A stretch of DNA of 46,821 bases, taken from the IMG/VR virus record IMGVR_UViG_2718217787_000008. One strand, given 5' to 3'. Source of the DNA: a virus. Taxonomy: Duplodnaviria > Heunggongvirae > Uroviricota > Caudoviricetes. This document shows positions 3,001 to 6,000 of this stretch, one piece after another. Made by a program: the position numbers. Positions within the stretch are counted from its first letter, which is position 1. Each line of letters opens with the position of its first letter.

Positions 3001-6000
3001 CACCCCCAGAGTTACGATTGCATCAGGCCAGCTCATTGATTCACCTCCTGCGGCGTCCTGGTATTCGATTTTCATTCCGGATGCTCCTGAGCCACATTGA
3101 AATCGCCATGATCACGACAAGGCATCACAACAAATTCAGGATTGCCATACATTGAGTTGATGATGGAATCAAACTGAATTCTGACCGCTTGCCCGTCACC
3201 GGAGGGACGTAACTGGACGGGAATAAATTTACGCTCACGACCAAACATCTTCTCTGGATAACTCAGGTAACCCGCCTGGATCACCGGGTGTGTACAGAGG
3301 TCAAATTTTTTCGGAATGATGCGTTCCAAATCCGGAAAACAACCGCCCACCAATTTAATGCCGGTAATGGACAGTCGGCGCTGAAACTGGTCGCGATGAA
3401 CAGCGATCGGCTCTTTACTAAAAATCAGCTCTGTCGTTTCGGCTTTGGCCGGGACGCCACCTTCGAACTGGACAATGATGTTTTTCTTCGTCCGGATGCC
3501 GTGAGTCATGCGCAGTGCTACGAAACCATTGGTTGCCTCAATATGTTTTGGCTTGATGTGAAGACCGTTCAGGTAATAACGAACGTCGTTTTTAGCAGCG
3601 CACACCAGAGCGGCGCGAATAAGTTTTGACTGGATGATCATGCTTTATCCTCCCATCCGATTACCTGGAAAAGCCCCATATTCGGGTGATACCAGCGTGT
3701 GCCGCGTGGTTCAGCCTCTGACATCATTTGGTGGAATGCCGCCATAAATGTCTCAAGCTCGACGATAGCCCTGCGAGACAACAGACCGTCCGGAGTCATA
3801 AATTCGTGCGTGTCGGTAGGGATGTGGTAGGCGTTGACCAGATTCCGACACTTGGCGTCACTCATTCCGCTTTTGGCTACCACCTGGCGGTAACCGACAT
3901 ATCCGGTGCGCATTGTGCCGCGTTTGATGTTCTCCACAGCTTTGGTGACCGTTTCGATCTTCTCTTCAACATGACTCAGGCGCTTCTGCTGACGAACGGC
4001 ATCGGCGGCCATTGCAGCGATCATCTCCATTTCCGTCAGCGGCGCGTGAGTTCGGAAATAGCTGTTAACCAGTTCGCGCTGAACCTGCCATGCAAGAGTA
4101 TCGTTAAAAGGCTTCGTCAACATCAGGTAACCAGACTCGAAAAGAATGATCCCTTTGGCAGTTCGCGCGGCAAAGGCATCAGAAAGTGACTCCGTACGTA
4201 TTACGTCCGCAGTCATTTCAAGAAAATCCACCCCTTCGATAAAGTGAGAACGGTTGCGGTTAAACGCAGCACGGGCGGTACCTTCCGGGCGCTGGTGGAC
4301 GTCATCAATCATTGCAAATGTCACAACACGCTGACCGCGATATTCGATTACCGGAAACTGTTTGTTGTTGATGGTTACAATATTCATTTTTATCTCCAGA
4401 CAGCCCGGCGTGTAATACCGGGCATATGTATTACTTAACCTGAATAAATGGTGTGTTGGCACCGCTGGTCATGTATTGCGGCAGTGTACCGTTCCACTTG
4501 TTGATGGCTTCCAGCTCCATAACACCGGGGTTCTGACGCAGAGCTTCACCGCGTAAACGAATAGCGTCGGCTTCGGCCTGGGCTTTTGTGCGAATCGCAT
4601 CTGCCTGTCCGGCAGCTTCCGCGCGCAACATGTTGGCTTCCGCTTCGCGCTGTTTTACTTCCTGCTCGCGTTGCAGGGTTTTCTGGTTCGCCGTGACTTT
4701 GGCATTAATGCTGTCGATAACAGTAGGCGGGTACTCCGGCTTACCCACATATGAGAGGCTCATTACCTGAATACCGATGGGCGTCATTTCTTCCTGAATG
4801 TCTTTAAGAGCTGCATCCAGCAGCTCAGACTTGCCGCCGTCGATAAATTTGTCGGTGGTCATTTTGCTGGCCAGTCGGTTGAGTGCGTCGGCTATCTTCT
4901 GGCGCAGGTCGGTGTCGGTAATGTCGTCCACGCCTTTGCGGTAGGTTTGAAACACCGTGGTAACTTTGGATGGATCAACTTTGTAGGCCACGCCGATGTG
5001 ATAGCCGATGGTTGTACCGTCACTCATCTGGAAACTGAATGGATCATCGTAGGTCTTCATCTGCTTAAAGGTCGGGAAGATGTAAACCTCAGTGTTCCAT
5101 CCAGTCCAGTAGCGCCCAACACCGACCACTTCACCGACGCCTTTATCGTCGCCCAGTTTGTTTACTTTGATGCCCACATTACCAGGCTCAACGCGATCGC
5201 AACCGACAAGGCCAATGGTCGGCAGAACAAGGGCTAAAGCAAAAAGTAATTTTTTCATCTTTTATCCTTAGAAAAAGAAAGACCCTTATAAATGGCATAA
5301 ATGCAGGGCGGGGTCAGACACGCCAGAGCAAAGCCAGAAATCACTGCTACCGTATCCTTCATTGATATGAGGGCCGGAACGATTAATCCGTAAATACATG
5401 TGATAATTGCCAGTGATATAACTATTCTGAAATAAATGTTCATGGTCCTCCTGATGTATTCGGCTTGCCTTATTTAATTGCGTCATGGTTAATTTCGTTT
5501 ACGTCAGAATGGTTTTGTTGCCATCAGTTCGTAATATCCGGCGCTCCATGTGTCATATTTTCTGAACCATTTTTCTGTATACTGTTTCCTGGCGATGAGT
5601 CTGCGCAGTCGTCTGATTGTTCGCTGGTGTGCGCGGGTATACTCTGTGGTTGATTCTCCACGTTTCCATATCTCATTCCCGTTGAAGATAAAACGCTTGT
5701 CAGGATAGCGTTGTCGGAATCCTGAACGTTCAAAAGCGCGGGTGGTCATAAAGAATGCCAGGTAACGAATTGCCGTTTTTCGGGTGAGGCATTTTTTTGT
5801 TCTTCCGTGGCGTGTTACAAAAAATAACGGGCCGACGGGTGTATCATGTTTCTGTAATGCCTGGTCAATGGCGCTGGCGGTGCGGTTGTCGATCATTTCT
5901 TTATTTCTCCCGAATAACGTTCATGACTCATTACTTCCCAGTTCCGGCCGTCGTCTTTCGATAACAGCCGCCAGCGACGGTTAATCTTCAGACTGAGATA

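Follow-up and report, generated by a model that had tools for sequence, protein, structure and literature searches.

An SPFH lipoprotein and a 62-residue membrane hairpin form a predicted mobile phage module that may build a split HflK/C-type scaffold

Cages built by SPFH-superfamily proteins (HflK/C, prohibitin, erlin, stomatin and flotillin) have recently been solved by cryo-electron microscopy, and their effect on the clients that they enclose is still unclear. The solved complexes are closed or nearly closed, membrane-seated cages of 22-26 or more protomers, with HflK/C standing in the periplasm and FtsH inside, and the number of subunits has been related to CC1 helix length by the regression y = 0.1782x + 10.22, with x in residues (PMC12624060). 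A second well-described arrangement is the SPFH-NfeD operon (QmcA-YbbJ, YqiK-YqiJ and the archaeal stomatin pair PH1511-PH1510), in which an SPFH gene is accompanied by an adjacent, co-transcribed gene for a small membrane protein; in the QmcA-YbbJ structure (8z5g) this partner co-assembles with the SPFH ring. SPFH proteins are also encoded by phages, where their role was called 'unclear' as late as 2026 (PMC13239085). Here we describe a pair of overlapping genes in a tailed-phage genome (Caudoviricetes; IMG/VR record IMGVR_UViG_2718217787_000008), which was analysed as one stretch of 46,821 nucleotides (hereafter the window). The larger gene encodes an SPFH lipoprotein and the smaller one a two-helix membrane protein, and we tentatively read the pair, leaving its client aside and giving this reading somewhat less than an even chance, as a mobile module that builds a split HflK/C-type scaffold with a membrane role early in lytic development.

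The window is 100% identical to a prophage of Escherichia coli O157 strain Al Ain (NZ_CP043539.1), in which RefSeq names the two products 'SPFH domain-containing protein' (WP_000734576.1) and 'hypothetical protein' (WP_001028879.1). An original prediction for this DNA had placed two overlapping minus-strand open reading frames (ORFs) with 4-nucleotide stop/start coupling at 4431-5443, and both the coordinates and the overlap were confirmed. The first ORF of the pair (5443..5255, minus strand) has an ATG start and encodes the hairpin protein of 62 amino acids, MNIYFRIVISLAIITCIYGLIVPALISMKDTVAVISGFALACLTPPCIYAIYKGLSFSKDKR, whereas the second (5258..4431, minus strand), likewise starting with ATG, encodes the lipoprotein of 275 amino acids. 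Bases 5255-5258, which read tcat on the plus and ATGA on the minus strand, are common to both. The features of the locus, each with the evidence on which it is drawn, are the following:

5255-5443, minus strand: hairpin partner gene, 62 amino acids, predicted N-in/C-in, loop motif P23-x-L-I-S27-x-x-D (ORF, phrog_1130, alignments, charges, dN/dS)
5447-5452, minus strand: Shine-Dalgarno sequence AGGAGG, 3 nucleotides upstream of the hairpin ATG (read from the sequence)
5255-5258, minus strand: ATGA overlap predicted to couple translation of the hairpin gene to that of the SPFH gene (sequence; recurs at other loci)
4431-5258, minus strand: SPFH/Band-7 lipoprotein gene, 275 amino acids, including the stop codon (Band_7, phrog_200, AlphaFold2, Foldseek)
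5199-5258, minus strand: signal peptide and lipobox L-V-G-C20, with Asp21 at position +2 (sequence, Cys conservation)
4635-5195, minus strand: Band_7 domain (SPFH1 and SPFH2), residues 22-208 (Pfam and AlphaFold2 model)
4533-4727, minus strand: predicted CC1 helix, residues 178-242, 65 amino acids (AlphaFold2 model; aligns to the HflK/prohibitin-2 coiled coil)
4479-4499, minus strand: family-specific motif K-W-N-G-T-L-P in the C-terminal part, residues 254-260, predicted to lie at the cage crown (family conservation)

Purifying selection acts on both genes, as the ratio of non-synonymous to synonymous substitution rates (dN/dS) was 0.11-0.30 for the hairpin gene and 0.03-0.22 for the SPFH gene, and a chance pair of ORFs is therefore far too weak an account of the locus. 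That the pair is real and functionally linked is close to certain.

By profile, by fold and by its predicted N-terminal membrane anchor, the large protein belongs to the SPFH superfamily. It matched Pfam Band_7 (PF01145) over residues 22-208 with E = 8e-31 and 107.9 bits (cut-off 23.6), spanning profile positions 2-176 of 176, which agrees with the SPFH/band-7 assignment originally proposed, and it matched phrog_200 ('lipoprotein') with E = 1e-114. In the AlphaFold2 model of the lipoprotein as a monomer, built on 90 diverse homologues (predicted local distance difference test score, pLDDT, 82.6), residues 2-16 form a signal helix, residues 19-94 a beta-rich SPFH1 domain, residues 96-175 an alpha/beta SPFH2 domain, residues 178-242 one uninterrupted helix of 65 residues and residues 244-254 a short helix, followed by a low-confidence tail; the long helix corresponds to the HflK/C-like coiled-coil tail that had been anticipated. 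When this model was compared with the PDB by Foldseek, the top match was HflC (7vhq_G, E = 2e-13), followed by PHB2, HflK, erlin and stomatin. Overall, matches between E = 2e-13 and 2e-7 took in HflC, HflK, PHB1/2, erlin1/2, stomatin, QmcA and flotillin; those to HflC, HflK, prohibitin and erlin (2e-13 to 1e-11) and to stomatin are to full-length cage protomers, and QmcA, flotillin and major vault protein were among the more distant ones. By sequence, the closest PDB entry is HflK (E = 2e-4, residues 114-240) and the next is the prohibitin coiled coil. Beyond the coiled coil, W255 and G257 are invariant and L259 and P260 are kept in at least 90% of members, giving a motif of the form K-W-N/D-G-x-L-P which is retained even in crAss-like and phiCbK-like members and which, in sequence alignment, has no aligned counterpart in HflK or prohibitin.

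Databases already label the large gene as SPFH, and misleading legacy names also persist in phage records, among them 'putative serine protease' (from phiP27 L05) and 'putative transposase' as well as 'protein QmcA' and 'HflK family protein'. The members so named lack a protease domain, and the 'serine protease' label inherited from phiP27 was rejected, as the only match to any protease family was a weak one to phrog_11227 ('protease') on the coiled coil (E = 9e-4); the name probably goes back to the former association of HflK/C or NfeD with proteases. In Burkholderia phage phi644-2 (locus L193, 1501-2700), the SPFH lipoprotein ORF runs in frame into a transposase of the rve type, forming a chimera of 400 amino acids, which accounts for the strange labels 'transposase fusion protein' and 'PF00665' in the family. 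Both the 'serine protease' and the 'transposase fusion protein' annotations are wrong for the family and are due for replacement.

The anchor of the SPFH protein is a predicted lipid. Its N-terminus reads MKKLLFALALVLPTIGLVGC followed by D, that is a signal peptide ending in the lipobox L-V-G-C, as had been noticed originally, with Asp at position +2, and Cys20 is kept in at least 90% of the family (n = 90 members). Asp at +2 is the established inner-membrane retention signal of E. coli lipoproteins, and the protein very likely sits at the periplasmic face of the inner membrane. This bears on the idea of a lysogenic-conversion or virulence lipoprotein that reaches the cell surface or outer-membrane vesicles and acts on the animal host, for which a precedent exists in the prophage-borne, 25-35 kDa, HflK/C-like PM0222 of Pasteurella multocida, a vesicle protein that activates Toll-like receptors (TLR) 1/2 and whose deletion attenuates the bacterium in mice (PMC9872710). 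The window does come from an E. coli O157 strain and relatives occur in Shiga toxin (Stx) phages. However, PM0222 is set beside the family by description and not by sequence, TLR2 activation is generic to bacterial lipoproteins, the residue at +2 predicts retention in the inner membrane, and the family is widespread in environmental lytic phages for which animal virulence is irrelevant; we regard such a role as highly improbable.

In spite of the shared fold, the lipoprotein is neither HflK nor HflC. It shares with them the superfamily, the protomer plan (SPFH1, SPFH2, long CC1, CC2 and C-tail) and, as a prediction, the periplasmic side of the membrane. However, HflK and HflC form a heterodimer of two paralogues of 334-419 amino acids, each with an N-terminal type II transmembrane helix, whereas here a single gene encodes a lipid-anchored chain of 275 amino acids, the transmembrane part resides in a separate 62-residue hairpin, and the module is carried by phages and appears mobile. 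The equivalog profiles agree with this distinction, as the protein scored 25.4 bits against TIGR01932 (hflC, cut-off 134.4) and 23.4 bits against TIGR01933 (hflK, cut-off 159.4). Identity as HflK or HflC was thus ruled out by the equivalog scores, the lipobox anchor and the single SPFH gene.

The small protein consists of two hydrophobic helices joined by a short loop and matched phrog_1130 ('membrane protein') with E = 1.5e-23. In the family alignment, which includes both separate and fused versions, the loop reads P-x-L-(I/V)-S-x-x-(D/S), with P23 and S27 invariant and G37 nearly so. Lysine and arginine residues average 2.3 in the N-tail, 3.6 in the C-tail and 0.4 in the loop across 25 hairpin members; because the tails are basic and the loop is not, the positive-inside rule predicts an N-in/C-in topology with the conserved loop in the periplasm, on the same side as the predicted body of the lipoprotein. 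Profile searches of Pfam and the PDB with the hairpin family gave noise only and pointed to no known family. A search with the single 62-residue sequence found only close relatives (full-length matches of at least 64% identity), and it took synteny and a hidden Markov model (HMM) to bring out how broad the partner family is.

Size, topology and a basic C-tail make the hairpin resemble a class II holin, and it could be imagined as a holin-like or pinholin-like pore former with the SPFH cage as its regulator. Two members do match a Pfam holin family, but at noise level (E = 0.038), and the residues that are conserved lie in the periplasmic loop and not in the helices. Of what defines a class II holin, a two-helix N-in/C-in protein beside an endolysin in a late lysis cassette, only the topology was found here: the gene never adjoins an endolysin, it is placed among early and not late genes, and no lysis genes are among the matches listed for its neighbours. 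A pore-forming role is thus most improbable.

In its position the hairpin is reminiscent of NfeD, and the adjacent, co-oriented membrane-protein gene that characterises an SPFH-NfeD operon is indeed present. The original prediction had already remarked that a two-helix protein, translationally coupled to the SPFH protein, occupies the place of an SPFH partner without being a canonical NfeD, and this was upheld, as none of the 25 hairpin members matched NfeD (PF01957) at E up to 1. At 55-90 amino acids the partners are too short for the NfeD OB-fold domain; they also lack a ClpP-like protease domain and have two helices only, and the SPFH body of the module is predicted to be periplasmic and lipid-anchored. 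QmcA, by comparison, faces the cytoplasm. The absence of the OB-fold domain from all 25 partners rules out that the pair is an SPFH-NfeD operon. The two kinds of module nevertheless have in common a close physical tie between partner and SPFH protein, by co-assembly in QmcA-YbbJ and by natural fusion in the family described here.

That the two genes belong together is apparent from their co-occurrence. When one genome per species was scanned, the SPFH start was met or overlapped by the end of a small ORF of this type in 14 of 16 loci, which span Enterobacterales to Sutterella, Luteibacter and Dyella; in the other two (Shigella and one E. coli) an insertion sequence (IS) lies between the hairpin and SPFH genes, so that the partner is present in 16/16. 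In these two chromosomes (Shigella flexneri and E. coli; L088 and L089, 3233-4000) the IS has landed exactly between the hairpin stop and the SPFH start, breaking the translational coupling and leaving both ORFs intact. An earlier scan of IMG/VR with close relatives had returned only loci of 97-100% identity and was uninformative on co-occurrence; with a profile of distant members, 80 diverse IMG/VR contigs were collected, 78 of which had upstream sequence, and the hairpin HMM detected a same-strand partner in 76 of these 78, the gap usually being -8 to +70 nucleotides. The same 4-nucleotide ATGA overlap was found in Fraca, P88, a Salmonella prophage, a jumbo contig and many IMG/VR loci.

Moreover, the two proteins are sometimes one. 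Among the 150 closest family representatives at 50% identity there are 18 natural fusions, in which the hairpin is followed by a signal-like segment with the lipobox Cys (kept in 18/18) and then by the SPFH body. This order, with an N-in/C-in hairpin leading through the signal and lipobox into the SPFH domains, forces the SPFH body to the periplasmic side; as judged from sequence, the fusions support a functional partnership and independently fix the predicted topology. They also invite comparison with stomatin, which combines a hydrophobic hairpin, a lipid modification and an SPFH cage that encloses clients, since the fused members likewise have an N-terminal hairpin. In stomatin, however, the hairpin is monotopic, lies in the same chain and is accompanied by palmitate, whereas the hairpin of the module is predicted to span the membrane, is usually separate, and is divided from the SPFH part by the lipobox Cys.

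Two unusual arrangements were seen among the metagenomic loci. In a T4-like contig (L109, 1633-6004), a gene for a periplasmic TAXI-type solute-binding protein lies between the hairpin and SPFH genes and has a 4-nucleotide overlap with the SPFH start, with genes for a MotA/ExbB-like protein and a DegP-like trypsin-PDZ protease just upstream; the whole resembles a grouping of envelope and periplasm genes of the phage. A contig deposited as 'MAG: archaeon isolate PL23a_bin.95' (L103) holds an N4 gp19-like hairpin and a stretch from the N-terminus of the SPFH lipoprotein (residues 1-81, at 62% identity), which suggests phage or bacterial DNA binned into an archaeal metagenome-assembled genome.

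The distribution of the module is wide. By tblastn the lipoprotein was found in 356 of 50,697 phage records, including N4-like, rV5-like, LUZ24-like, phiCbK-like, crAss-like, Erwinia, Agrobacterium and Burkholderia phages, and by megablast in 534 of 5,426 complete E. coli genomes (about 10%), at 417 chromosomal and 198 plasmid places; a 50%-clustered protein universe holds 227 representatives at E below 1e-30. Hosts range over Enterobacterales, Pseudomonas, Burkholderia, Caulobacter and Agrobacterium, to which crAss-like phages from human faeces are added. The complete pair is present in phiP27, Stx2 phages, the HK97-like Fraca, the P2-like P88 (gp11-gp12), the P1-like RCS47 (where the hairpin is an unannotated ORF of 78 amino acids), N4 (gp19-gp20), an Enc34-like Salmonella prophage and T4-like/jumbo contigs. 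Among phiP27, the Stx2 phages, Fraca, P88, RCS47 and N4 the lipoprotein is 64-93% identical, with 64% between N4 and the lambdoid prophage and a dN/dS of 0.03-0.07 against three closer enterobacterial relatives, and the hairpin is 21-65% identical in the four phages that were aligned. PhiP27 and the Stx2 phages have only 4418-5434 in common with the window, and phi467, conversely, has both flanks in common (up to 4390 and from 5915) with other genes in between. On these sequence comparisons the pair appears as a discrete mobile cassette of about 1 kb that is traded between unrelated phages. The view that such a pair is not a standard part of lambdoid early regions therefore holds in part: it is accessory only, but it is not peculiar to lambdoid phages.

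Within the window the pair lies in an unbroken minus-strand run that leads from two helix-turn-helix regulators and eight small ORFs through the pair itself and an antirepressor-like ORF6N gene to four more small ORFs, xis and int. A promoter and terminator scan of 2200-9000 found no sigma-70-like promoter or intrinsic terminator flanking the pair, and promoter-like sites are rarer in the whole region than in shuffled sequence. Because the run is unbroken and no promoter or terminator of its own is predicted, the pair is read as lying inside the leftward early operon, in line with the original prediction. A moron with its own promoter and terminator was also considered and is unsupported, as neither was found beside the pair.

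Other phages place the pair in comparable surroundings. P88 has it between cox and replication gene A, in the early operon that a repressor controls in P2-type phages; in N4, a strictly lytic phage, it comes just after the RNAP2 genes in the early/middle region; in the Salmonella prophage it lies between the genes for single-stranded DNA-binding protein and DNA polymerase A; and in large lytic contigs it is found among genes for UvsY, NAD salvage, Gad2, Acb1, thioredoxin and RNA ligase. A census of 139 ORFs flanking the module in diverse viral contigs gave as top families the ribonucleotide reductase small subunit (7), AAA/clamp loader (5), ThyX and ThyA (5 together), MazG (4) and dCMP deaminase (3), with DnaB among the single matches; no family was common, and most of the 139 ORFs had no match to the top families. 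No holin or endolysin family is among the matches listed for these ORFs. This pattern fits a function in lytic development and fits a defence expressed by the lysogen poorly, and an early lytic role is, in our view, probable. In the P1-like RCS47 (L006, 2864-4204) the pair, with the hairpin gene at 3775-4011, lies together with a tRNA-Met gene between upl/plp and ban, the position at which P1 itself presumably carries tciABC. A perfect P1 C1 operator overlapping a copy with 2 mismatches was found in RCS47 at 5749-5776, 1.75 kb upstream of the pair, and is the only such site found.

The original prediction had held a superinfection-exclusion or abortive-infection role to be plausible, which in a prophage would mean a two-component membrane module, expressed by the lysogen, that kills or protects the attacked cell. 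An accessory prophage cassette found in about 10% of E. coli genomes, consisting of two coupled genes with a membrane location, would suit such a role, and the PHROGs category of the small protein is indeed 'moron, auxiliary metabolic gene and host takeover'. However, a scan of the pair and four neighbouring proteins with PADLOC-DB 2.0 gave no match of either protein of the pair to any defence-system model at E up to 0.1, no promoter or terminator of its own is predicted and the operon is expected to be repressed in lysogens, and the presence of the module in N4 and in T4-like/jumbo contigs, in early lytic units and next to genes for nucleotide metabolism and replication, would not be explained. 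The pair was found to be widespread in prophages and phages, with nothing to mark it as a defence system of the lysogen, and a defence expressed by the lysogen is very unlikely.

Exclusion of secondary phages during lytic growth is another matter. A periplasmic assembly could stop the DNA or ejection proteins of a secondary phage, or lysis from without, during lytic growth and perhaps at low level in lysogens. Exclusion is known from T4 Imm/Sp, P22 SieA and HK97 gp15 and from the early lipoproteins T5 Llp and phi80 Cor, all of which are, like the proteins studied here, small early or accessory envelope proteins or lipoproteins. The early position of the genes, the periplasmic location at the inner membrane and a portable accessory cassette that is swapped between unrelated phages would all suit this function. 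So would the position between upl/plp and ban in the P1-like element, which we take to be the site of tciABC in P1, homologues of which are linked to tellurite and colicin resistance and to phage inhibition. In the Vi01-like phage PhiSH19 an SPFH gene adjoins an annotated superinfection exclusion gene (PMC3220722). Against this stands that the module has no sequence or fold relation to the known exclusion proteins, none of which is SPFH, and that no such label was found in PADLOC, Pfam or PHROGs. Exclusion proteins are also usually narrow and fast-evolving, whereas the lipoprotein is 64% identical between N4 and the lambdoid prophage with the low dN/dS given above; different hosts imply different entry routes, so that one conserved blocker is hard to picture; and a cage about 20 nm wide covers little membrane. 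Superinfection exclusion during lytic growth is, on balance, rather unlikely.

The same wide host range fits a generic membrane target, and with it the idea that the cage protects the membrane or acts against host defence, by stabilising or resealing the inner membrane, keeping up the proton-motive force, delaying premature lysis or blunting those effectors of abortive infection and sensors of the envelope with which the host acts at the inner membrane. SPFH proteins organise membranes, and N4, whose lysis is known to be delayed, carries the module. In the early accessory regions of large lytic phages the module has known anti-defence genes beside it, with a Gad2 domain gene immediately upstream in L104 and an Acb1 gene about 2.5 kb upstream in DSS3_MAL1. 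This evidence is, however, purely associative: there are no lysis genes among the matches listed nearby, no anti-defence activity is reported for the family, and the periplasmic orientation is unlike that of repair proteins of the PspA/Vipp1 type. Membrane protection is accordingly a quite unlikely main function.

The reading that we prefer, a split HflK/C-type cage, draws on the solved SPFH complexes, on the co-assembly of QmcA and YbbJ and on the CC1 regression, which for a CC1 of 65 residues yields about 22 subunits. In this model the first gene would provide a hairpin with both ends in the cytoplasm and its short conserved loop (P-x-L-I/V-S) in the periplasm, and the second an inner-membrane-retained lipoprotein whose periplasmic body forms a full SPFH protomer (SPFH1, SPFH2, CC1, CC2 and C-tail). 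The ATGA coupling would yield roughly equal amounts of both proteins, and we infer a 1:1 complex of hairpin and lipoprotein. By analogy with the solved complexes, about 20-24 copies of the lipoprotein would then assemble as a domed cage at the periplasmic side of the inner membrane, with the CC1 helix forming the cage wall; assembly of a cage of this type is likely. The hairpins, docked through their conserved periplasmic loop, could stand as a transmembrane palisade in place of the N-terminal helices of HflK/C, and cage and hairpins together would fence off a patch of membrane. As the module is presumably transcribed with early and DNA-metabolism genes, it would act during lytic development or induction and not in the resting lysogen.

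The job that such a scaffold would most plausibly do is to capture or insulate a universally conserved client in the inner membrane, a target suggested by the broad range of hosts, by the portability of the cassette between unrelated phages and by its slow evolution. FtsH would be the first candidate, since the one other SPFH cage in the bacterial periplasm has it as client and since it is a known phage target: lambda CIII, encoded on the same side of the lambda map, targets FtsH. Capture of FtsH would re-tune membrane-protein proteolysis, as CIII does from the same operon position. The likeness would be confined to the operon side in lambdoid phages and the shared target, as CIII is a cytoplasmic amphipathic peptide of 54 amino acids and is unrelated in sequence, location and mechanism. 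A search of the window for a lambda-type cIII with a single query sequence detected none, the matches being noise outside the left arm. FtsH as the client is speculative and doubtful.

A number of observations weigh against this reading of a split HflK/C-type scaffold acting early in lytic growth. Our literature search on phage SPFH, band 7 and HflK proteins found no functional study of the family. There is one SPFH gene and no K/C pair, the SPFH chain carries no transmembrane helix, HflK/C are only 16-18% identical to the lipoprotein, and the NCBIfam HflK/HflC profiles score 23-25 bits where their cut-offs are 134-159. At the far edge of the family (LUZ24-like, phiCbK-like and crAss-like phages) a small membrane protein of another kind takes the neighbouring place. 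The oligomeric state and the docking of the hairpin are drawn from homologues, and the timing is read from gene position. Binding of FtsH, moreover, is not inferable from sequence, and N4 carries the module though control of lysogeny through FtsH is irrelevant there, so that an effect on FtsH would serve another purpose in this phage.

Some further features of the window lie close to the pair. Two genes upstream in the same operon, a 72-residue ORF (5893-6111, minus strand) is named 'ParE family toxin-like protein' in RefSeq. In the 43-nucleotide spacer between the SPFH stop and the ORF6N start there is a perfect 6-bp GC-rich inverted repeat (4404-4425; GCCCGG, a 9-nucleotide loop and CCGGGC), which is not followed by a T-run on the coding strand and might serve in mRNA stability or processing. 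A 189-residue ORF that lies just downstream of ORF6N (3072-3641, minus strand) matched phrog_3007 ('RusA-like resolvase') with E = 3e-64; its weak sliding-clamp matches (TIGR00663 dnaN, E = 8e-4, and phrog_947 'processivity factor', E = 9e-5) and no match to a Pfam family were also recorded, and the resolvase label looks doubtful. The window begins inside the transposase gene of IS1203, an element of the IS3 family, which abuts the integrase end of the prophage (1-888, plus strand), and this element may disrupt or mask the prophage's left attachment site.

Within the literature searched, the hairpin partner and its fusions, the periplasmic lipoprotein design, the placement among early genes and the spread across phage families appear to be undescribed. 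The module would represent a compact, self-contained version of an SPFH cage, with one lipid-anchored SPFH chain and one hairpin of 62 amino acids, and that it is kept, exchanged and placed among early genes by N4, P1, P2, lambda-like, T4-like and crAss-like phages points to a generic role of value during infection, on the periplasmic side of the inner membrane. A bolder version, which we consider unlikely, is that many phage families deploy early a phage-made mimic of HflK/C with a transmembrane palisade of its own, which sequesters a universally conserved machine of the inner membrane (FtsH or another quality-control or transport complex) or hides the infected membrane from envelope sensors of the host; if true, this would be a device of general use in host takeover or anti-defence, and no SPFH cage before it would have had a defined function in a virus. 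As the module is small and occurs in tractable phages (N4, P1-like phages and Stx prophages), it makes the function of SPFH cages directly testable, and it may reveal a new way in which phages control membrane proteolysis, membrane integrity or superinfection.

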